Origin: an uncultured Candidatus Saccharibacteria bacterium
GTDB taxonomy: Bacteria > Patescibacteriota > Minisyncoccia > Phycocordibacterales > UBA12079
Direction of reading: 5' to 3'
Length of the DNA stretch: 62,153 bases
NCBI GenBank assembly: GCA_964486155.1
Contig: CAZAKQ010000002.1
Span: 1 to 62,153 of the forward strand
Positions 5,001 through 61,945 of this stretch are shown here, one piece after another; the stretch's first letter is position 1; every line of letters begins with the position of its first letter. The notes under the pieces were generated by a model. The model worked only from the letters and a program-made list of their open reading frames with translations. It had not been told where the DNA came from and made no database searches. The translations under genes and the position numbers were made by a program.

Positions 5001-5146
5001 GAAATAATAGCTAGAGGAATTTGTATTTCTGGAGCTGATTCTTTAGTTATACTTATCAAAGAAAAAATACCCGACACAATCAGAGAAATTATCAAAAGAA
5101 TAGTGAAACTCTTTTTCTTTATAAAAAATATCCAAAAATTTTGCAT
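2051..5146 (-). CDS. RND-family efflux permease (AcrB/HAE-like)
   Basis: 1031 aa with a 12-TM-like architecture and two large extracytoplasmic loops. Typical AcrB-family N terminus, and an adaptor gene lies directly upstream. Confidence 0.85.
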   Translation of the reverse strand: MQNFWIFFIKKKSFTILLIISLIVSGIFSLISITKESAPEIQIPLAIISTYLPGAFATDTEKLITNKIENQLINNLDTLNKITSTSGEGFSSVVAEFNADANIQESIQKVKDEIDKIKSELPDEAEDPIVSDINFADQPILMLSITSDLPITEFIKLSEEVEDSLKSINGVSKIITSGISEREIQVIVDQSALSKFNLEISDLSRAISQSNSSLPIGDIEINGIKYPLKFKGDIIDPEEIKNIPVLNIGGEVVYIRDLAFVSDGISQRTSFSRVSVNGSPSQQAVSLSIFKKRGGDISKIVKNVKKELKEMQEGGILDGAEVLFSIDLAEYLNKDLRNLSTSGLVTILLVISILYLTIGWREALIAGLAIPFSFLIAFVGLYSTGNTINFISLFALILAVGILVDSAIVVTEAMHTKIKKGMDGKKSAIKTIKEFYIPLTSGTMTTIAAFFPLFFLSGIMGEFIKGIPYTLIFILCASLFVALGIVPLIALSVLKQNGNTRNNLLFKKQTEYTFYLQKWYRNKLEHLLNNRKFQKRFLWSMGFFLVISFILPISGLLKTTLFVPEDLDFIYVEIEMNQGTILAETDMVVRIVEEILYSQPYIESFATAVGSSNAFSGTGSSSGEKLGNITVLLKDDRKKPSWELVEILRKELTEINTAKVTVAQPSEGPPSEAPILIKFFGENLQDLEKVVIDAEDILKDIKGSTNISNSMNDSVIEFELKIDRAKLSENNLSPVKIAQILRTAIYGIDATTIKTKGEDIDVLVKLNLNSENIDPNLTSRTTIDSIRQMEIKTQTGTILLGSLIDVSIKKNNSSIRHEEGERIAVVSSQLKDGANAIEVNKKFMSKIEDGSFIIPEGIILKTGGENEDIAKTFTEMLLALIAGMIFVIVVLVLQFDSFKQTSFIIAGVLLSLIGVLFGLTLTGNAFSFPSFIGVIALAGIVVNNEIILIDTMNNMKKERRDLSLREIVLESSALRLRPVLLTTLTTVIGMVPLIFASTMWAPLAFSIIFGLSFATIITLILIPILYLRYMS

Positions 5147-5200
5147 GATAAGTTTATTTGAAAGTTTTAAATTTAAAAAAATTGCGGAGTATTTTTTATT

Positions 5201-6853
5201 TTATAAACTTTCAACTTTTTGCCCTTCTTTTAAACCTCTAGCATCAATCACTATTTCCATTTCAGCATTAACTCCTTCTTTTATAATTATTTTTTCTCCT
5301 AAAATTGGTCCTAAAATTATATGGTGAGAAACTAATTTGTCATCTTTATCTATAGTAAATACAACCACAGAATCTGTTCTAATTTTAATAGCTGAAATAG
5401 GAACAGAAAATTCTGATAATTCCTCATTTTCTTCTGATAAAACTCTTTCAACTAACAAAGATGTTGATTGACCATTAGTTAAAATTGTATTTTTATCATC
5501 TACTGCAATTTCTATTTTAATTTTCTTAGTTTTTGAATCCAATGCAGGAGCAATGTTTTTTACATAACCTTTCCATTTCTTATTAATTAGAACTTCAGAA
5601 CCATTTTTAATACTTTCTCTATCTTTCTCAGTAATATAAGATACAATTTCTAATTGATTATTATTAGCTACAATCAACACAGGAGCAAATGATGAAACAA
5701 AATCTCCTTTTTCTAAATTTAAAGAATTAATAGTACCACTTATAGGAGCTCGTATAATAGTTTTTTCATAAGCAGCCTTGGCTAAATCTAGCCCTGCTTT
5801 TGCTTGTTTTAATTGAGCTTCAGCACTAATTATATCTTCTGTTCTTTCGCCTATTAAAATTTGATCATAATTTAATTGGGCTATTTCTTTTGCAGAAACA
5901 ACAGAATTCAAACTATTTATAGCAGAAGAAATTGTTGAAGCGGTTAAATTTATAGATGAACGACTTACACTAATATTAGATTTCCAAGTATTAATAGTAG
6001 TTTCTGATAAATTAGAATTTGGAGATAAAACATTTACCGCCAAAGCTACTTGATCTAAAAATTTTCTAATTTGATTGATATTTTTCTTAGCTAATTCTAA
6101 AGCTTCAATTAAATTACCATCTACATCCAATGAAAACAAAAAACTCTCCCATTCCTCCAACATTTGTTCAATTAAAAATCTTTCCCATTCTATATCAATT
6201 TCTAATTGAGAGTCGTTCACAGAAAAAAGAACCTGAGGATTTGAGTCTCTAGGATCTCTGAACATAACATCTGTTTTATTTCTGACAGCATCATCAGCTT
6301 TTATATATGAATCATTTAATGTATTAATAATAGATACCTTAGTTTCATTTAATGAATTTTCACTATTATTTAAAGTTGCTTCTAAAATAGAAACTTGCTC
6401 ATCTCTAGCTCCTGTTTTGATTTTATTTAGAAAAGCAGCTGCAGATTCTACACTTGCCTCAGCTTGAATTAAAGAAGATCTTTGAGACCAATTATCTATT
6501 TCAGCAATTATTTGATTAGCCCAAACAAAATTCCCCTCTTTTTTATACAAAGCTATAATTTCTCCAGCACTCTGAGAATGAACTACAGCAGATGATTGAG
6601 ATTGAACTTTCCCTAACAAAGGTAAAAAAGTATTATCTAGAGTTAAGTCTCTAACAGTCATTGTTTTTACTTGTCTAATATTTTGAACAATTTTATCTTC
6701 TTCATTATTAATATTTTTTATAATAAATTGTTGGTAAATTACAAAAACCAGAATAAAGAAAATAACAGCTATTAAAATTTGCTGGTTTCTCTTCAGAGTT
6801 TTTATTTTTTGAATCCTATTTTGAACAGAATTTAAACTTAATATTTCTTTCAT
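5201..6853 (-). CDS. HlyD-family membrane-fusion (periplasmic adaptor) protein
   Basis: N-terminal TM, long coiled-coil region and a C-terminal beta-barrel-like region (IIRAPISGTINSLNLEKGDFV). Operon position upstream of the RND pump. Confidence 0.75.
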   Translation of the reverse strand: MKEILSLNSVQNRIQKIKTLKRNQQILIAVIFFILVFVIYQQFIIKNINNEEDKIVQNIRQVKTMTVRDLTLDNTFLPLLGKVQSQSSAVVHSQSAGEIIALYKKEGNFVWANQIIAEIDNWSQRSSLIQAEASVESAAAFLNKIKTGARDEQVSILEATLNNSENSLNETKVSIINTLNDSYIKADDAVRNKTDVMFRDPRDSNPQVLFSVNDSQLEIDIEWERFLIEQMLEEWESFLFSLDVDGNLIEALELAKKNINQIRKFLDQVALAVNVLSPNSNLSETTINTWKSNISVSRSSINLTASTISSAINSLNSVVSAKEIAQLNYDQILIGERTEDIISAEAQLKQAKAGLDLAKAAYEKTIIRAPISGTINSLNLEKGDFVSSFAPVLIVANNNQLEIVSYITEKDRESIKNGSEVLINKKWKGYVKNIAPALDSKTKKIKIEIAVDDKNTILTNGQSTSLLVERVLSEENEELSEFSVPISAIKIRTDSVVVFTIDKDDKLVSHHIILGPILGEKIIIKEGVNAEMEIVIDARGLKEGQKVESL

Positions 6854-6993: not shown

Positions 6994-7611
6994 TTAATTG
7001 TTTTCTTCTGTTTTTTTAAGTTCTACTTTTTGATACTCTTTAAACACTTTTTCTTTGTCTCTTTTTACTAGCTCCAATACCTTCTCTACTAATTTTTTAG
7101 GATCATCGTCAAATACAATTTTATCATTAGGACGATGAGCTTTTTCTAAAATAGTTTCTATAATTTCATCAGTTGCCCAATCCCCTCGTAGAATACCAAT
7201 GGGTTTATTGTCTTCAAAAGCAATAGTAAATTCGTGAATAGTTCCAACTCTACCAGCTGAAATAAACACCGCATCTACTGATTTAGTTAAAATTAAATCT
7301 CTTCCAGGATAACCAAAACCTGTATAAATAATTAAATCCATATACTCTAAAGGTAATTTATAGTGTTTTAAATGATCTTGTTCTGTATCTGCTGGAGAAA
7401 ATCCAATAGAAAAACCTCCTTCAGATTTAGCCCCTTTAGCTCCCCACAAAGGTAACCCTGTAGTTGCTCCCGTTACAATAATCCCCCCTTGTCTAGCTAT
7501 TTCTCTCCCTAATTCTTCTGTTTTTACAACAGCATCAGGAGTAAGATGAGTTGTTTCAGCAGCTCCCGAAACACATAATTTGGGTTTTAAAATAATTCCT
7601 TTTTCATCCAT
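6994..7611 (-). CDS. TIGR00725/LOG-like (SLOG Rossmann) family protein
   Basis: Motifs GGIIVTGATTG and ISAGRVGTIHEF are typical of the LOG/DprA-related Rossmann family. Confidence 0.65.
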   Translation of the reverse strand: MDEKGIILKPKLCVSGAAETTHLTPDAVVKTEELGREIARQGGIIVTGATTGLPLWGAKGAKSEGGFSIGFSPADTEQDHLKHYKLPLEYMDLIIYTGFGYPGRDLILTKSVDAVFISAGRVGTIHEFTIAFEDNKPIGILRGDWATDEIIETILEKAHRPNDKIVFDDDPKKLVEKVLELVKRDKEKVFKEYQKVELKKTEENN

Positions 7612-7881
7612 AATTATAAATAAGTTGAAAGTTTATAAAGTTAAAAGTTCTTTAAAAAATTTGCTCTGCAAATTTTTTACTTTATAAACTCTCTACTCAA
7701 TGATTAATTTTTAATTCTTACAATAATTTAGCTTTTCGATAAAGATCTTTTTGTAACTTATTTGATTCTGATACAGCATTTTTTATTATCTTTTTTTGAT
7801 TTCTAGAAGAAATAGAAGACCAACAAAAAGCTTTGTTTTTCGTTTTTCCTCTATCAAATATTTTTTTTATTGTTCTTGTTA

Positions 7882-28388: not shown

Positions 28389-28820
28389 TCAATTTCTTTT
28401 CTTGTATTTTTCATCTATTTGATTTAGAAAATCCCATCTACCTTTTCCTACAATCGGGGGCATTCCACATTTTAAAACAATCTCCATTCCATCCCAAAAA
28501 GTAACTCTGTTCTTTTTCTTTTCTACCATTTCTAAAATATTTTCATATTTGTCAAAATCAATATCATTAGCTACTTTAATTACTGTAGATTTACTTACAC
28601 TTAAAATTTTATGAATACGATACATAGATACTTTTTCGTATAACATAAAAATTATAGATAGTCGTTTAGCTAAAACTATTTTTTCAGATTCTGTTAATAA
28701 ATCATCTAAAAATCCTTTAGCTGAAGTATTAGTTTCCAAATCAGCAACAATATTAACTAAACGACTATTTATTTTGTTCGAAACATTTTTCTTTAATTTA
28801 TTTTTTGAAACATTAACCAT
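28389..28820 (-). CDS. TrpR/YerC-like helix-turn-helix protein (paralog 1)
   Basis: LLTESEKIVLAKRLSII..YRIHKILSVSKSTVIKV resembles the TrpR-family HTH. Paralog at 35706..36152. Confidence 0.6.
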   Translation of the reverse strand: MVNVSKNKLKKNVSNKINSRLVNIVADLETNTSAKGFLDDLLTESEKIVLAKRLSIIFMLYEKVSMYRIHKILSVSKSTVIKVANDIDFDKYENILEMVEKKKNRVTFWDGMEIVLKCGMPPIVGKGRWDFLNQIDEKYKKRN

Positions 28821-31934: not shown

Positions 31935-32014
31935 TGATTCTTATATCTTATTTTATTTTAGGTTTTTTTGCAAAATGAAAACCAAAGTATATAACTTTAG
32001 TTTTGTTTAAATTT

Positions 32015-32220
32015 GCGCGATCGAAGGGACTTGGTCACTCTCGTGGATATTTATTTCGTGCTTTGCACTCATAAATATCTCACTCCCTTGACCTCCACTC
32101 GGCGATACGACTCTTTCGCTTCGCTACAGAGTCGGCTTCGCATCGCCTCGGTTCAAGTCCATCATCGCGCTAAAACAAAAGTCACCCAACACTATCGTAT
32201 TGGGTTCCTTTGTTTTATGC
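32015..32220 (-). other. tRNA-3'-end-associated structured module A (candidate ncRNA or miniature integrative element)
   Basis: The 20-nt sequence at 32015-32034 is identical to 32219-32238 (tRNA-Asp T-loop to 3' end). An inverted copy lies at 32151-32172. Hairpins at 32047-32080 and 32110-32134. Confidence 0.65.
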
Positions 32221-32418: not shown

Positions 32419-32507
32419 AATTAACCAATAATATAGCATATTTAGTTAAATAATTAAACACTCCTCCAAACAAAAACAACCCAATTGGGTTGTTTTTGTT
32501 TTACTTG

Positions 32508-32578
32508 TTGCGGGAGCCTGACTTGAACAGACACCTGGAGGTTATGAGCCTCCCGTGCAACCTTTACACCATCCCGCG
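32508..32578 (-). tRNA. tRNA-fMet (anticodon CAU), initiator-like
   Basis: C1-A72 mismatch (cgcggga / tcccgca), anticodon stem ggagg/cctcc, loop ctCATaa, T loop ttcaagt. Confidence 0.7.
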
Positions 32579-32790
32579 ATATACTATTTAGTTTTAAAAC
32601 AAATTTATTCTTGTAACTCATAACCAAAGGTTATGAGTCTATGGATCCTATCGCGTGCAACCTTTACACCATCCCGCGATATACTATTTAGTTTTAAAAC
32701 AAATTTATTCTTGTAACTCATAACCAAAGGTTATGAGTCTATGGATCCTATCGCGTGCAACCTTTACACCATCCCGCGATATATTTAGTT
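32554..32790. repeat. 100-bp tandem repeat, about 2.3 copies, each containing the 5' 25 nt of tRNA-fMet
   Basis: 32554-32653 is identical to 32654-32753. A third partial copy starts at 32754 and has a 3-nt deletion. Confidence 0.9.
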
Positions 32791-35705: not shown

Positions 35706-36152
35706 CTATTTCTTATTCTTATATTTTTTAATATTATATTTTTCATAAATTTCATCTAAGATATTCCATTGCCCCGCTCCTACAATAGAAGGTATCCCCA
35801 TTTTTAAAACCAAATCCATTCCTTTCCAAAAAGTCATTCTATTTTTTCTCAGTCTAACTATTCTCAAAATATATTTATATTTATCTAAATTAATATCTTG
35901 AGAAACTTTTTTTACAGTAGTATCACTTACCTTTATCAATTCAGAAATTCTATACCAACTTAAATTTTCTTGAAGCATAAAAATGATAGCTAATCTCTTT
36001 GCTAAAGTTATTTTTTCTGACTCAGTTAACAATTCATTTAAAAAGTTCTTTGTAGAGGAATTGGTTTCTAAACTAGTAATTACATTAATCAAACGATTAT
36101 TAATATGCTCAGAAACACCTTTTTTTAATTTTTGTTTAGAAACATTAACCAT
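35706..36152 (-). CDS. TrpR/YerC-like helix-turn-helix protein (paralog 2)
   Basis: MVNVSKQKLKKGVS..LLTESEKITLAKRLAIIFML. About half the residues match paralog 1 by eye. Confidence 0.6.
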   Translation of the reverse strand: MVNVSKQKLKKGVSEHINNRLINVITSLETNSSTKNFLNELLTESEKITLAKRLAIIFMLQENLSWYRISELIKVSDTTVKKVSQDINLDKYKYILRIVRLRKNRMTFWKGMDLVLKMGIPSIVGAGQWNILDEIYEKYNIKKYKNKK

Positions 36153-54952: not shown

Positions 54953-57130
54953 ATGAATTTAAATTCAACAATATTAAAAGAATTTCGAACTACCGAAGCT
55001 CAAAAGAAAGCACTTAAAAAACTTGGATTAAAAACCATAGAAGATTTACTTTTTTATTTCCCTGCTCGTTATAACAGCACTGAAGATTTAAAAGAAATAA
55101 AAGGTCTAAAAAAAGGAGACAAAATAATTCTCTATGCTCAAGTCAAAAAAATAAAAGCTACCAAAGCTTATTACAAAAAAATTCCAATGACAGAAGCTAC
55201 TTTAGAGGATGCTTCTGGTATAATCAAAGCTATCTGGTTTCGTCAAGCCTACATTTCTAAAATGCTTCCTGAAGGTTCTTTTGCAAAATTTTCAGGTACT
55301 ATTTCTGAACGAAAAGGGAAACCTTATTTAGCCAATCCTGAATATCAAAATGTAAGTTCTTTACCAATTGTGTCTAAAGGAGCTTTATTTTCAGAACAAA
55401 AAATAGATTCTTTTACATTGCCTATTTATCCAGAAACTCGTGGTCTAAGTTCCAAATGGATTTATCATAAAATTGAAAGGATATTTTCTGAAGGGGTTTT
55501 AGATAAATTAGAAGATCCAATTTCAGACAAAATTTTAAAAAAATATAATCTTCCTACTTTAAAAACAGCCTTAATTTGGATCCATACTCCTAAGAAAAAA
55601 TCAGATGCTCAAGCTTCTAGAAAAAGATTCGCTTTTGAAGAAGTTTTTTTTATTTCTCTTTTACGAGCCAAACAAAAAACTGAATATCAAAAAAATCCTT
55701 CCTTTAAAATTTCTACAACCCAAAAAAAATTAAAAGATTTTATCAATCGCTTCCCTTTCAAACCAACAACCTCTCAAACAAAATCAATAAATGCAATTTT
55801 AAAAGACTTCAAAAAAGATTATGCTATGAATCGTTTACTTGAAGGAGATGTTGGTTCTGGAAAAACTGCCGTAGCAGCTGCAACTATTTATGCAATTACT
55901 ACTACCTCTCCTAAAAACCAATCTTCGGCACGCTTGCAAACAGCCTATATGGTACCAACTGAAATTTTAGCCAAACAACATTTTGAATCTTTTATTAAAT
56001 TTTTTGAATACTTAAACATTAATATTGGTTTGATTACTTCTTCAGGCTGTAGAAAATTTCCATCAAAAGTAGATCCTACAAAATGGACAAAAATTTCCCG
56101 AGCTCAACTTTTAAAGTGGATTGCCAATGGCGAAATACCAATTCTCATTGGAACGCATTCTTTAATTCAAAAATCAGTTGAATTTAAAAATTTAGCTTAT
56201 GTCATTATTGACGAACAACACCGTTTCGGGTTGATGCAAAGACAAAAATTAACTCGTAAAAACGGAGAAATTTCTAAAACTAAAGACTTAACTCCACATT
56301 TATTATCTATGACAGCTACTCCTATTCCTCGAACTTTAGCTTTAAGTATTTATGGAGATTTAGATTTAACTTTATTAGATCAAATGCCTCACGGAAGAAA
56401 ACCAATTATTACTGAAATTGTTACTCCTCAGCAAAGAGAAAAAACTTACACTCAAATTAAAAAGAAATTAAAAGAAGGACGACAACTTTATGTAATTTGT
56501 CCTAGAATTGAAGAACCTGATCCTACTAAAGCAGGGGCTTTACGAGTCAAATCAGTAACAGCTGAGGCTCAACGATTAAAAACAGAAGTTTTCCCTGAAT
56601 ACGAAATTGGAATTCTACATAGCAAAATGAAACCAACTGAAAAAGAAGAAATTATGGATGATTTTTCTGAAGGTAAAATAGATATCTTAGTAGCTACTTC
56701 AGTTGTGGAAGTAGGAGTAAATGTAGCTAACGCTACTATGATTATTTTGGAAGGAGCTGAAAGATTTGGCTTAGCTCAACTTCATCAATTACGAGGACGA
56801 GTTATTCGTTCTAATCATCAAGCCTATTGTTTTGTTTTCAGTGATACTAAAACAGATAAAACTTTAGATAGACTGAAAGCCTTAAAAACTGCTAAAAATG
56901 GTTTTGAATTAGCAGAATTTGATTTAGAATTACGAGGTTCTGGAGAATTAATAGGAAATAAACAATGGGGAATGTCTGATTTAGCTATGGAAGCTATTAA
57001 AAATATTAAATTAGTAGAAGCGGCTCGAACTGAAGCTAAAAAATTAATAGAGGATGATCCTGAATTTCAGAACCACCCTCTAATCTTAGAAAAAATTTCC
57101 CAAATTGAAAAACTTATTCATTTTGAGTAG
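54953..57130 (+). CDS. recG: ATP-dependent DNA helicase RecG
   Basis: Wedge/OB N-domain, Walker A GDVGSGKT, DEQHRFG box, helicase C motifs QLHQLRGRVIR. Confidence 0.95.
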   Translation: MNLNSTILKEFRTTEAQKKALKKLGLKTIEDLLFYFPARYNSTEDLKEIKGLKKGDKIILYAQVKKIKATKAYYKKIPMTEATLEDASGIIKAIWFRQAYISKMLPEGSFAKFSGTISERKGKPYLANPEYQNVSSLPIVSKGALFSEQKIDSFTLPIYPETRGLSSKWIYHKIERIFSEGVLDKLEDPISDKILKKYNLPTLKTALIWIHTPKKKSDAQASRKRFAFEEVFFISLLRAKQKTEYQKNPSFKISTTQKKLKDFINRFPFKPTTSQTKSINAILKDFKKDYAMNRLLEGDVGSGKTAVAAATIYAITTTSPKNQSSARLQTAYMVPTEILAKQHFESFIKFFEYLNINIGLITSSGCRKFPSKVDPTKWTKISRAQLLKWIANGEIPILIGTHSLIQKSVEFKNLAYVIIDEQHRFGLMQRQKLTRKNGEISKTKDLTPHLLSMTATPIPRTLALSIYGDLDLTLLDQMPHGRKPIITEIVTPQQREKTYTQIKKKLKEGRQLYVICPRIEEPDPTKAGALRVKSVTAEAQRLKTEVFPEYEIGILHSKMKPTEKEEIMDDFSEGKIDILVATSVVEVGVNVANATMIILEGAERFGLAQLHQLRGRVIRSNHQAYCFVFSDTKTDKTLDRLKALKTAKNGFELAEFDLELRGSGELIGNKQWGMSDLAMEAIKNIKLVEAARTEAKKLIEDDPEFQNHPLILEKISQIEKLIHFE

Positions 57131-57347
57131 TTTTTTTAGGAAACTCATAATTTAAATCACCGGTTTTTGGATCAATTTTCATTGTATACCAAACAGATTT
57201 TTCTTTTTTTCCAGGTTTTTTTAAAGAATCATATCCCTCCATACTTTGAACCTCAAAACTTCCACAAGAAGGACAAGAATCAGAATTTGAAAAACGAGAC
57301 CTACAGTTCAAACATCGAATATTTTCATCAAAAGCATAATCACTCAT
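57114..57347 (-). CDS. small zinc-ribbon protein
   Basis: CLNC...CPSC pair. 77 aa. Converges on recG and overlaps it by 17 nt. Confidence 0.45.
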   Translation of the reverse strand: MSDYAFDENIRCLNCRSRFSNSDSCPSCGSFEVQSMEGYDSLKKPGKKEKSVWYTMKIDPKTGDLNYEFPKKTTQNE

Positions 57348-57411
57348 TTTAAATATTCTCCTATTTTTTAGTTTAAATTTATACTTCTAAAATTGATATT
57401 ACCACATACAA

Positions 57412-57641
57412 AAAACCAAAGCTATCTGCTTTGGTTTTAAGTATTTTAAATTCAGGACTCGGTCCCCAGTTCTAAGTTCAGACTTCGTCCTTCGGAACTC
57501 GTCTTCACTAAGAACTCTTGACCTCGCTCAGTCGTATTTCCCTTCACTTCGTTACGGGAAATTTACTCCTTCGTTTCGAGTCCTGCCACACGCTAAAATA
57601 CTAAAAACCAAAACTAAACGCTTTGGTTTTAAGTATTTTAG
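57412..57641 (-). other. tRNA-3'-end-associated structured module B
   Basis: Inverted copy of the tRNA-Ile 3' end at 57577-57593. Hairpin at 57536-57562. CTTGACCTC at 57517-57525. Distal direct copy of the T-loop segment plus terminator hairpin at 57412-57461. Confidence 0.6.
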
Positions 57642-57714
57642 TGCGTGTGCCAGGACTCGAACCTGGGACCACAGAGGTATAAGCTCTGCGCTCTACCAAC
57701 TGAGCTACACACGC
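57642..57714 (-). tRNA. tRNA-Ile (anticodon UAU)
   Basis: Acceptor gcgtgtg/cacacgc, anticodon stem cagag/ctctg, loop ctTATac, T arm ccagg-ttcgagt-cctgg. Confidence 0.85.
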
Positions 57715-61338: not shown

Positions 61339-61752
61339 GGGAGTGACAGGCTTCGATAAATAAATTCTTTTTAAATATGCAAAGAAAGCTGAATTAACTT
61401 TCAAACTGATTCAACTAGATAAGTGCAGACTTAACTAAGAAAGCAGGGAGAACGGTTTCACCTTACTTCACTGCTCCAGCTTTGGCATTCGCTTAATTTT
61501 TTAAACGAAAAGACCAATTATCGCAATTAGCGACTGGTGTCATATAGATGAATTTCTAAATAATCTATACCGGCATAATAATTTTAGAATATAGAAATTT
61601 AATTTTTTCGCCAAATTTCCGAAACTCAGAAAATCGAGACTATAAGGTTTTGTTTATTTCTTACTTATTTTCTTTAAACTGAAAAATAATCTAACTTTGT
61701 AGAATTATTTAAAAACTTTATTTACACGAGAGTTCGATTCTCTCCACTTCCA
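61339..61752 (+). ncRNA. ssrA: tmRNA (SsrA)
   Basis: 5' gggagtg pairs with 3' cacttcc, including a G3-U70 wobble. Conserved ggcttcga near the 5' end. Tag frame ends ...APALAFA-TAA. T arm gagag-ttcgatt-ctctc. Confidence 0.85.
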
Positions 61753-61945
61753 CAATAAAATAAAGAACAGGCTCTAATGCCTGTTTTTTGTTTTATCTGC
61801 ATGGAAACAGAGAAGATAATCGAAAGACGGAAGAAAATCCGAGATTTTCTGAGTCCGGGCAGGAGCCACTTAATAAAATATAAGTGAGTTTACGAACGAA
61901 ATATTTTATCTTAGTGAGCTGACGCCGATTCTCTCCACTTCCACA
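61753..61945 (+). other. tmRNA-3'-end-associated structured module C
   Basis: The 20-nt sequence at 61926-61945 is identical to 61735-61754 (tmRNA T-loop to 3' end). A terminator at 61766-61795 is followed by a degenerate inverted copy and an AT-stem hairpin similar to module A. Confidence 0.6.
61766..61795 (+). terminator. rho-independent terminator of ssrA
   Basis: aacaggc-tctaat-gcctgtt followed by ttttg. Confidence 0.7.

Follow-up and report, generated by a model that had tools for sequence, protein, structure and literature searches.

Protein-less units behind tRNA and tmRNA genes of Patescibacteria: a candidate family of non-coding cassettes that target the T loop

Bacteria of the candidate phyla radiation (CPR, Patescibacteria) have tiny genomes with few recognised mobile elements, and the ways in which their DNA is exchanged and rearranged are not well understood. 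MITEs, Correia elements and REP/BIME are small, non-coding, multi-copy and hairpin-forming sequences that are mobilised in trans, as the units described here would be. In CTX phage the attP site is a fold, since two inverted copies of the target site form the substrate. Phages and ICEs whose tyrosine integrases cross over in the T loop of tRNA or tmRNA genes, such as mycobacteriophage Ms6, duplicate a block of identity that starts in this loop and reaches the gene's end, with the tRNA restored, and reuse of one site leads to tandem accretion (PMC1762012). The core of the Ms6 attP spans 26 bp from the T arm to the 3′ end and can be retargeted by matching it to the T loops of other tRNAs (PMC1762012). 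Integron cassettes form arrays beside a fixed site, with an order that varies among relatives, and their attC sites are strand-specific imperfect palindromes (PMC5027507). Tycheposons of Prochlorococcus also form arrays with partial tRNA copies beside the tRNA genes of a streamlined genome, older ones being pushed outward (10.1101/2020.12.28.424599). Finally, signals for initiation on single-stranded DNA, such as the G4 origin and RSF1010 ssiA, contain clusters of strand-specific GCGNAGC or CCGAAGG mini-hairpins within ~100-140 nt (PMC13037366). The units that we describe resemble, or would resemble, each of these systems in the respects listed and depart from all of them in others.

The window analysed is a 62,153-nt stretch from an uncultured Candidatus Saccharibacteria bacterium, and the locus under study, module B, follows its tRNA-Ile(UAU) gene. 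A first-pass annotation of the window had listed a series of parts behind this gene, and all of them were recovered where it had placed them. Module B and its surroundings are composed as follows.

57641-57714, minus strand: intact tRNA-Ile(UAU), host gene and proposed insertion target (ARAGORN; Rfam tRNA, 74.7 bits)
57641-57661, minus strand: proximal X, the T loop, T-stem 3′ strand and acceptor 3′ strand of tRNA-Ile; left copy of the duplicated attachment sequence and left palindrome arm (repeats; family register comparison)
57594-57640, minus strand: L1, an A/T-flanked palindromic, terminator-like hairpin with its stem at 57604-57630 (terminator scan; cassette-free relative)
57575-57593, minus strand: X′, the final 19 nt of tRNA-Ile in inverted copy, with 1 mismatch (inverted repeat, 95%)
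57455-57583, minus strand: structured core, a three-way junction (covariance model, covariation, sense-strand folding)
57578-57585 with 57453-57460, minus strand: P1, closing stem of the core
57527-57573, minus strand: P2 arm of the core, which contains tandem G.A pairs; its tip is an ACGAAGT mini-hairpin
57461-57523, minus strand: P3 arm, in which GGTC (57520-57523) pairs with GACC (57461-57464); tip CCGAAGG
57453-57461, minus strand: partial distal X, CGAGTCCTG, direct copy of the T loop and T-stem 3′ strand (direct repeat)
57406-57448, minus strand: L2, a second flank and terminator-like hairpin, 88% identical to L1; end of the module (direct repeat)
57114-57347, minus strand: 77-aa zinc-ribbon-like ORF between module B and recG

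Two inverted repeats link the tRNA to the sequence behind it, one of 19 nt (57575-57593 and 57643-57661, 95% complementary) and one of 26 nt (57587-57612 and 57622-57647, 88% complementary). Combined, they make a palindrome with arms of ~38 nt and a hairpin loop at its centre. The one mismatch that the first-pass annotation gave for the tRNA-derived part is a C/G mismatch and stands; its single unpaired base in the A-run does not, the arms having a 2-nt bulge (the discriminator A and a C, missing from the inverted copy) and a T/A mismatch in the A-run. None of 300 dinucleotide-preserving shuffles contained a 19-nt inverted repeat with at most one mismatch, against three overlapping ones observed. 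The hairpin at 57536-57562, GAGGTCAAG at 57517-57525, the long imperfect hairpin (57461-57523), the direct copy of CAGGACTCG (57453-57461, identical to 57651-57659) and the 43-nt direct repeat of flank and hairpin (57406-57448 versus 57598-57640, 88%) are likewise present. GAGGTCAAG forms the junction and the base of P3, and the T-loop/T-stem part of X′ (57578-57585) is the 5′ strand of P1. The antisense segment and the distal T-loop copy pair together as the closing stem of the unit, and the folded core of ~115 nt lies between them. L1 and L2 both match the consensus of intrinsic terminators on the tRNA strand (57630-57604 and 57438-57412); the consensus scan gave three terminator-like sites where 0.2 were expected, and L2 is terminator-like on both strands.

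Two more modules lie in the same window. Units keep the orientation of their tRNA or tmRNA gene on both of its strands.

32010-32218, minus strand: module A, behind tRNA-Asp (109.4 bits with covariance model R1)
32171-32218, minus strand: hairpin of module A
32150-32170, minus strand: X′ of module A
32027-32160, minus strand: core of module A
32014-32033, minus strand: distal copy of the tRNA-Asp 3′ end, exact over 20 nt (exact repeat at +192)
61755-61945, plus strand: module C, behind the tmRNA gene (exact repeat at +179)
~61803-61824, plus strand: X′ of module C, imperfect
61926-61945, plus strand: distal exact 20-nt copy of the tmRNA 3′ end (61735-61754)

Modules A and B had been described as sharing the order of their parts and their loops while differing in their stems, and this comparison holds: they are copies of one conserved modular element at tRNA 3′ ends, in a family that extends beyond them. 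The combination of differing stems with conserved loops recurs family-wide and is base-pair covariation. The 9-mer common to the two modules is, taken alone, weak evidence (0.26 expected per window; two or more in 5 of 100 shuffles). The core of module B reaches 103.7 bits (E about 1e-31) with R1, a covariance model built from 31 seed sequences of related copies that include module B itself. Two units of a single Saccharibacteria tRNA-Ala array share 84-85% identity with the cores of A and B, while X and X′ are wholly different. Module C has a terminator-like hairpin and a divergent ‘C-type’ core; it is 78% identical to the second unit at another locus, L024, and scores only 8.7 bits with R1.

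The covariance-model search returned 90 units with E < 1e-6 from Patescibacteria genomes and metagenomes. GC-rich matches to a broader pattern that scored <15 bits with the model were discarded, and the initial pattern (the loop plus GAGGTCAAG) gave 3 true units in 28 matches, the rest being mostly chance. At loci where an upstream tRNA or tmRNA gene was detected (22 from the genome collection and ~20 from metagenomes), the first unit starts 57-68 nt past the 3′ end of that gene on the same strand. Units follow at least 16 tRNA types plus tmRNA, are 173-194 bp long and contain no ORF. They are arranged in tandem, heterogeneous arrays of up to four, such as the four different units behind the L024 tmRNA gene. 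Like core types stand behind different tRNAs, with X and X′ matching each tRNA; types of L, P2 and P3 mix and match among units; and unrelated E-type cores are found in the same X-L-X′...X architecture. Some units flank cargo genes, e.g. Fic/DOC, and the cargo and neighbour ORFs comprise Fic/DOC, a P-loop NTPase, a zinc-ribbon protein, a hydrolase and housekeeping genes. The 77-aa zinc-ribbon-like ORF beside module B is missing from the syntenic sister genome and may be cargo, the link being uncertain.

We read the distal copy as an att-type direct repeat, the duplicated attachment sequence of an insertion, and not as a regulatory device. In modules A, B and C, direct repeats of the 3′ segment of the gene lie on both sides of the insert and the gene itself is intact. 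At 15 loci, 12 nt of the T-stem/acceptor 3′ strand are repeated exactly at +173 to +194 nt past the tRNA end; exact 12-mer copies occur at 21 loci in total, the other six having them at other offsets (+248 to +656 in multi-unit arrays), and the identity of the duplicated X stops at the 3′ end of the gene. Module B carries a 9-nt T-loop/T-stem copy and a 43-nt flank repeat, its distal X being without the acceptor strand, which modules A and C and most relatives have in full. A sister genome (L100) with the same FtsH / 225-aa gene / tRNA-Ile / recG synteny has no X′, core or distal X and keeps an L1-type hairpin behind tRNA-Ile, and so represents the empty site; homologous hairpins follow other tRNAs at L031 and L033. 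At tRNA-Leu, L145 and L031 are near-identical to L161 except for one cassette of 213 nt that L161 has in addition. The insertion point of this cassette is exactly at the T arm, a 23-nt repeat bounds it, and it lies on the tRNA-proximal side of an older unit. In both comparisons of orthologous sites the boundaries between presence and absence fall inside the repeat. What exactly was inserted at module B is ambiguous, L being either element-borne or a duplicated native terminator, because its distal X is without the acceptor strand and its flanking hairpin is the same as that of the empty site. In the source population, a 613-nt spacer is identical in all 7 distinct places shown (24 contigs with an identical neighbour protein).

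These observations are best read as integrative cassettes of a new, non-coding family whose target is the tRNA T loop. That module B arose by integration of such a cassette, small (~190 bp), mobile and without protein genes, from a family spread across CPR, has in our view a probability of about one half. Integration would take place as in site-specific recombination within the T loop, with X duplicated on both sides of the insert. The cassette would bring a replacement tRNA 3′ end together with the terminator hairpin L, and the tRNA would therefore stay intact. With X′ paired to X, a single-stranded or circular cassette would be expected to fold into a long hairpin whose stem re-creates the T-arm/acceptor duplex, and this folded X-L-X′ hairpin could be an attachment site comparable to integron attC or CTX-phage attP. 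The palindrome ends in TTCGAnTCC and GGAnTCGAA; across the family its T-loop end is always paired and its inner part variably so. By analogy with attC, we propose that structure is conserved over sequence here too, and that the cassettes may recombine as single strands. A recombinase encoded elsewhere in the genome would cut and join, and the GCGNAGC-rich core may work as a single strand, perhaps as a signal for recognition or priming. Alternatively, the core may be a transcribed RNA.

A more elaborate version of the cassette reading is tentative: an integron-like CPR system in which tRNA and tmRNA genes dock folded single strands of ~190 nt, one recombinase acting in trans serves many tRNAs, X-L-X′ mimics the T-arm/acceptor end of the target, the GCGNAGC-rich three-way junction signals recognition or priming on the single strand, and some cassettes carry cargo. 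A cassette with its own X needs a separate route to new tRNA types. Core shuffling between resident cassettes is a plausible one, because the types of L, P2 and P3 mix and match.

Set against the known systems, the CPR units differ from T-loop integrative elements in their size of ~190 bp, in having no integrase or other protein, in adding an inverted att copy and a conserved single-strand fold, and in presenting one core type to many tRNAs. Unlike integrons, their arrays start at tRNA or tmRNA genes without an adjacent IntI gene, have no GTTRRRY R-boxes at their ends and consist mostly of ORF-less cassettes; the ‘attI’ would be the tRNA gene, and the mimicked target is the tRNA T arm rather than dif. 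Tycheposons are kilobases long and encode their own tyrosine or serine recombinase and hallmark replication genes, whereas the units have no ORFs. In contrast to MITEs, there is no short fixed target duplication around terminal inverted repeats: the units sit strictly at tRNA 3′ ends, X and X′ are derived from the target and vary with the tRNA, and the outside sequences are inverted, not direct. The likeness to single-stranded DNA initiation signals is one of motif only, with the CCGAAGG tip in module B; no replicon or primase is known to go with the units, and a priming function is conjecture.

Rfam 15 at the gathering score gave tRNA and tmRNA only over the whole window, and Rfam at E <= 10 over modules B and A gave nothing credible, its microRNA-type matches to the long hairpin being noise; no description of the unit appeared in Rfam or in the full-text literature searched. 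Three strict patterns and a broad one had no match in IMG/VR, and blastn found none in PLSDB or INPHARED, so that these collections yielded no copy in free or circular form or in a phage or plasmid. When the ORFs of 28 CPR loci were clustered all against all, no recurrent neighbour protein family emerged, only small syntenic clusters, and a tyrosine-recombinase motif scan of 1.06 Mb of loci found one Xer-like ORF with no array adjacent. There is no integrase among the cargo. The lack of a linked recombinase and of any such free or phage or plasmid copy speaks against the cassette reading. The anatomy also does not fit IS200/IS605, TnpB omega-RNA, IS110 bridge RNA, group II introns, retrons, CRISPR-like elements or T-box, which were dropped because there is no linked enzyme, the duplications are unlike theirs, or X′/X form a stem and not guide loops.

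The fold of the core counts in favour of the cassette reading, and it also bears on the first of the other possible explanations for the units. The core is a three-way junction with strong covariation: paired cells amount to 95.2%, compared to 72.7% in shuffles; double changes are seen in 20 of 25 pairs; slid controls give 27-47%. The closing stem also covaries (AU 24, CG 24 and UA 17 at the T-loop N position). The sense strand is more stable than the antisense strand in 41 of 42 units, with 100 G.U pairs versus 45, and GCGNAGC occurs 65 times in sense, at 36 times the background rate, and never in antisense. One hypothesis makes the core above all a gene for a structured non-coding RNA. Read-through from the tRNA, or a weak promoter within the right arm of L, would produce the transcript, X′/X would close it, and proteins would bind its G.A-rich internal loops; the repeats would be by-products of the spread of copies, e.g. 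by recombination after DNA uptake. Strong covariation, a fold specific to the tRNA-sense strand and the constant orientation of units with their tRNA would all suit such a gene, as would the TAnnnT hexamers that repeat in the right arm of L. The A-type internal loop AAGGGA/GAGAGU resembles loop E of bacterial 5S rRNA, and P2 has tandem G.A pairs and an AGUA/GAA motif. Loop E-like or tandem G.A motifs suit a protein-binding RNA as well as they suit a cassette. 5S rRNA itself was ruled out, and the likeness is kept at the level of the motif because the Rfam 5S model had no match.

We nevertheless consider an RNA gene unlikely. A terminator-like hairpin stands between tRNA and core, no sigma-70-like promoter was predicted within any of the three modules, no Rfam family (5S rRNA included) matches, and units are sporadic at orthologous tRNAs. 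Most of the tips carry C(GNA)G triloops, whose strength in RNA is far below that in DNA, and GCGNAGC is a ‘mini-hairpin DNA’ that is far less stable as RNA and is present at single-stranded DNA priming signals (PMC13037366). Unrelated E-type cores also occupy the same architecture, which is therefore independent of this particular RNA.

The duplications could alternatively be the work of a transposon or retroposon that is not autonomous and resembles a SINE or a casposon. It would cut the tRNA gene in a staggered way, fill-in would then duplicate the target between T stem and 3′ end, the core would be recognised by a transposase or reverse transcriptase acting in trans, and X′ would be copied from the target or later corrected by template switching in the palindrome. 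Such a mechanism would account for direct repeats that are target-identical at many tRNAs while leaving the tRNA unharmed, and casposons make 14-15-bp duplications at tRNA 3′ ends. The perfect 27-nt X/X′ palindromes at L039 and L049 suggest templated copying, and L135 has an exact duplication of the entire 60-nt X-plus-L segment. However, the duplicated segment has no flanking terminal inverted repeats, there are no A-tails, and neighbour-ORF clustering and the motif scan found no reverse transcriptase, Cas1 or transposase nearby. At L043 the distal T loop is unlike that of the tRNA and the remaining X is identical, which a crossover in the T loop explains at least as well as a staggered cut, and the order of cassettes differs among close relatives, as excision and reintegration would give. 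Transposition of this kind is quite doubtful.

The first-pass annotation had raised the idea of a device acting on tRNA-Ile in cis, whose antisense segment would compete with folding of the acceptor and T arm and so modulate RNase P or RNase Z processing. Complementarity over 19 nt with the 3′ end of the tRNA and the minimum-free-energy fold of a long transcript, which pairs X with X′, are in keeping with this, but the idea is not supported as stated: the segment pairs with the distal T-loop copy. A model-detectable unit directly follows tRNA-Ile(UAU) at ~4 of 67 CPR loci and is absent from the syntenic sister, and the module is therefore dispensable for tRNA-Ile maturation. The terminator-like L comes before X′, which makes co-transcription doubtful; roughly half of the family has an X′ whose acceptor-stem part is degenerate; and the same module follows at least 16 tRNA types and tmRNA, often in several copies. 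We regard a cis-acting role as very improbable. The same is true of decaying DNA, which the att-type repeats and the cargo genes of some arrays could bring to mind, given the uniform unit length of 173-194 bp, the absence of phage or plasmid matches, and the compensatory base-pair changes and 84-85% core identity across distant CPR lineages, which are not expected of decay.

If the cassette reading is true, CPR would have a new vehicle of genome plasticity in these protein-less cassettes that dock at tRNA and tmRNA genes. Their widespread family would switch its target from one tRNA type to another, form arrays and in some cases flank accessory genes, among them Fic/DOC toxins. The ~90 copies, with their covariation and strand-specific mini-hairpins, provide a data set on attachment sites set by structure and target mimicry without a linked integrase. 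Units of this kind inflate and confuse annotation just 3′ of tRNA genes in CPR metagenome-assembled genomes, and a covariance model would let annotators mask or track them.

The comparisons show that module B, the cassette behind tRNA-Ile(UAU), is one of a large family of insertions in CPR bacteria that are ~190 bp long, encode no protein and sit at the 3′ ends of tRNA and tmRNA genes. Across the family, an att-type segment is duplicated, units are present at some sites and absent from others, arrays change, cores are shared horizontally and a strand-specific fold is conserved. The window carries seven tRNA genes and one tmRNA gene. Three of these genes are followed by a module: tRNA-Asp by module A, tRNA-Ile by module B and the tmRNA gene by module C, which is of a divergent C-type. 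We denote by X the T loop, T-stem 3′ strand and acceptor 3′ strand of a tRNA, by X′ its inverted copy, by distal X the direct copy downstream and by L a terminator-like hairpin.

Features of module B, and location of module C
57641-57714, minus strand: tRNA-Ile(UAU)
57640-57594, read along the minus strand, downstream of tRNA-Ile: L1, an A/T-flanked hairpin resembling an intrinsic terminator
57593-57575, minus strand: X′, GCGTGTGGCAGGACTCGAA, reverse complement of the last 19 nt of tRNA-Ile with one mismatch
X′ down to 57461, minus strand: folded stretch of module B
57461-57453, minus strand: distal copy, CGAGTCCTG, repeating the T loop and T-stem 3′ strand in direct orientation
57448-57406, minus strand: L2, preceded by AATTT, a second copy of flank and hairpin with 88% identity to L1
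61755-61945, plus strand: module C, behind the tmRNA gene

All coordinates that the first-pass annotation had assigned to module B were confirmed, and aligning modules A and B bore out its claim that their parts come in the same order. The palindrome arms are likewise present, the difference between them being a 2-nt bulge plus a T/A mismatch and not the one unpaired base described; the inverted repeat occurred in 0 of 300 dinucleotide-preserving shuffles. The distal X of module B has no acceptor strand. Since L1, L2 and the hairpin of an empty sister site are of one type, either a copy of the local terminator is part of cassette B, or X and L were duplicated around X′ and the core. A 77-aa CxxC...CxxC zinc-ribbon ORF (57114-57347, minus strand), which has only weak HypA-like zinc-finger matches, lies between L2 and recG and overlaps the recG end by 17 nt; it is missing from the syntenic sister genome L100, and may be cargo or the product of a separate event.

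In module C, the tmRNA 3′ end CGATTCTCTCCACTTCCACA (61735-61754) recurs exactly at 61926-61945, and the two copies enclose a hairpin resembling a terminator, an inexact inverted copy and a core of the divergent C-type with 78% identity to unit 2 of the tmRNA array at L024, a locus from another CPR genome. Arrayed units in relatives start with the T-loop complement (GGAnTCGAA) and end with the T loop plus the T-stem and acceptor 3′ strand (CGAnTCC...). Because of these boundaries, the antisense segment and distal copy that had been described as separate parts, both of which exist, are re-read as the two strands of P1, the closing stem of a ~130-nt unit. Also in the window, a ~45-nt tandem duplication (32590-32700, minus strand) comprises the sequence upstream of tRNA-Met (32507-32578) and the 5′ part of that tRNA, with gttttaaaactaaatagtatatcgcgggatggtgtaaaggttgcacg present twice; the upstream copy runs into sequence with its own CTCATAA loop, where no tRNA was called. 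Paralogous ORFs of 143 and 148 aa (28389-28820 and 35706-36152, minus strand), 7 kb apart and flanking the tRNA cluster region, have near-identical N-termini (MVNVSK.KLKK.VS..IN.RL.N...).

A pattern search of species-representative genomes found true relatives in Patescibacteria, some as tandem arrays directly behind tmRNA genes. With a broader pattern, the genome collection yielded 35 loci and the metagenomes 42; ~60 of these are real, once GC-rich chance matches, scoring <15 bits with the covariance model of the core (R1), are dropped. In the genome collection, the MAGs that hold the real loci bear the label Patescibacteria/CPR or only ‘Bacterium’, and the metagenome contigs are without taxon labels; among the lineages named are Saccharibacteria, Paceibacterota, Kaiser-, Campbell-, Nomura-, Shapiro- and Vogelbacteria. 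R1 itself recovered 90 units at E < 1e-6, 74 of them distinct. Wherever a tRNA or tmRNA gene was recognized ahead of the units, it lies on the same strand and the first unit begins 57-68 nt past its 3′ end; units follow tRNAs of the types Ala, Arg (several anticodons), Asp, Gln, Gly, Ile (GAU, UAU), Leu, Lys, Ser, Trp, Tyr and Val. No Rfam family matched the cassettes, searches of IMG/VR, INPHARED and PLSDB turned up no copies, and no description of them was found in the literature searched. No gene recurs among their neighbours, nor was any recombinase, reverse transcriptase or transposase found to be linked to them.

Evidence for insertion comes from the duplicated tRNA end and from occupied and empty sites. 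Fifteen loci carry an exact 12-nt copy of the tRNA T-stem/acceptor 3′ strand at +173-194 nt from the tRNA end, and six further loci carry it at other offsets (+248 to +656 where several units form an array); the identity block ends at the tRNA gene 3′ end, with the discriminator and one or two bases. In an unbiased sample, R1 placed a unit directly behind tRNA-Ile(UAU) in only ~4 of 67 CPR loci, while some of the others have divergent relatives or different 3′-fragment repeats. L100, from the same MAG as L024, shares the synteny of the window (FtsH, a 225-aa hydrolase-like gene, tRNA-Ile and convergent recG) and is an empty site, where tRNA-Ile is followed by the same hairpin type and, 7 nt on, by recG; X′, core and distal X are all absent there. 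At tRNA-Leu(UAA), locus L161 is near-identical to L145 and L031 apart from an extra 213 nt exactly at the T arm, made up of X, hairpin, X′ and an ‘E-type’ core, with its edges within a 23-nt repeat and its position tRNA-proximal to an older unit. The hairpin of this new unit is the type that terminates the array in the L145 and L031 relatives, so cassette order differs among close relatives. No polymorphism was found at the module B locus in the source population.

Cores A and B each have 84-85% identity to two units of one Saccharibacteria tRNA-Ala array, with wholly different X and X′; cores are therefore common to several lineages and retargeted to different tRNAs. Hairpin, P2 and P3 types are found in mixed combinations across units. 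E-type cassettes (L161 minus strand, between tRNA-Leu and the A-type unit; L094 370-450) have an unrelated AT-rich core (GGGAATCGAAGCCYGATTGA...CAATTGGGGTACTGAAMCTGTAAG) in the same X-hairpin-X′...X layout, which therefore does not depend on the A/B core. In some arrays, cargo lies between units, such as a Fic/DOC protein with a P-loop NTPase, or a 144-aa ORF. A conserved stretch, GAAYTCCCGCGGGGGTACATTTAGTTGAGAGAGTRGAGATTT, follows, in different lineages, B-type units whose distal X is truncated after the T stem (L049 2956-3020; L035 ~7380-7440, minus strand; L165), and in L035 it lies ahead of the Fic/DOC and P-loop NTPase genes. In L035, too, a ~100-nt repeat ending ...GAGGTCCA (~7580-7690 and ~5100-5210, minus strand) precedes each of the two units bracketing the 2.4-kb cargo; it had no Rfam match.

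The genomically encoded tRNA-Ile(UAU) is itself widespread in CPR genomes (67 loci), and AUA appears to be read by this tRNA, both there and in the window (57641-57714). A second tRNA 3′-half copy, starting from the anticodon loop (ATATACCTCTG...), lies 20-130 nt past many CPR tRNA-Ile(UAU) genes (L074, L094, L097, L118, L121 and others), its T loop split by a conserved ~55-nt insert (CACCACAAGAGTATTTCC...TTAGGTCA). This interrupted copy is another kind of tRNA-linked element.

The copies of X differ in how far they match. Over its T-loop/T-stem part, X′ invariably agrees with the adjacent tRNA; its acceptor part ranges from perfect to degenerate, and in L039 and L049 perfect 27-nt arms extend into the hairpin flank. 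Across the family, a complete distal X tends to go with a poor X′; with a perfect X′, distal X usually ends after the T stem, as it does in module B. The distal T loop of L043 differs from that of the tRNA at the variable base while the remainder of distal X is identical, which places the junction at the T-loop/T-stem boundary.

The core folds as a three-way junction, in which P1 is followed by AAM, a P2 arm flanked by conserved C-G-A ... G-A-G (tandem G.A pairs), a short purine linker and a P3 arm with GGTC/GACC closure adjoining the P1 3′ strand; the motif GAGGTCAAG singled out in the first-pass annotation is the junction and P3 base. In an alignment of the 74 distinct units, whose fitting to R1 flatters the pairing and covariation figures, 95.2% of cells hold standard pairs (72.7% in shuffles), 20 of 25 pairs change on both sides, the covariation score is 0.584 versus 0.184, and sliding the partners lowers pairing to 27-47%. 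Independently, MAFFT/RNAalifold recovered the same helices and compensatory pairs at 16/25. The tRNA-sense strand folds more stably in 41 of 42 units (mean -45.5 versus -36.1 kcal/mol; Wilcoxon p = 2e-8) and has 100 G.U pairs versus 45 on the antisense strand.

Triloops, mostly C(GAA)G, make up more than half of the predicted hairpin tips. The sense strand has 65 copies of GCGNAGC and the antisense strand none (6.9 per kb versus a background of 0.19 per kb). A recent review describes GCGNAGC/GCGNNAGC as an extraordinarily stable ‘mini-hairpin DNA’ that is much weaker as RNA and is present at signals for priming on single-stranded DNA, among them the phage G4 origin and, with CCGAAGG, RSF1010 ssiA (PMC13037366); module B has CCGAAGG as its P3 tip. 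In modules A and B, a terminator-like hairpin stands between tRNA and core; in module C one is recognizable by eye, and the terminator scan gave it a score on the opposite strand only. No sigma-70-like promoter was found within the three modules. We lean towards a DNA-level role on the strength of the DNA-type mini-hairpins and of the terminator that precedes the core. The G.A-rich internal loops and the fixed orientation of units relative to transcription would suit an RNA role, and we consider an RNA-centred reading rather unlikely.

Duplication of the T loop-to-3′ end segment, restoration of the tRNA and proximal placement of the newest unit point to site-specific integration in the T loop, a signature otherwise known from elements that carry an integrase. 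Phage Ms6 has precisely this segment as its 26-bp attP core, which can be directed to other tRNAs if it is made to match their T loops (PMC1762012). Three features are new in the cassettes: they carry no gene, they include the inverted copy X′, and their core is structured. A circular or single-stranded cassette would carry one X and one X′, and pairing between the two would yield a stem that re-creates the duplex target, with L closing one end and the P2/P3 junction the other. This geometry predicts the integrated order tRNA-X-L-X′-core-X, as observed. The attP of CTX phage has a geometry parallel to that of the proposed folded cassette. Integron attC sites offer the same parallel (PMC5027507). 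We put the probability that the family consists of integrative cassettes with a folded att site at about one half.
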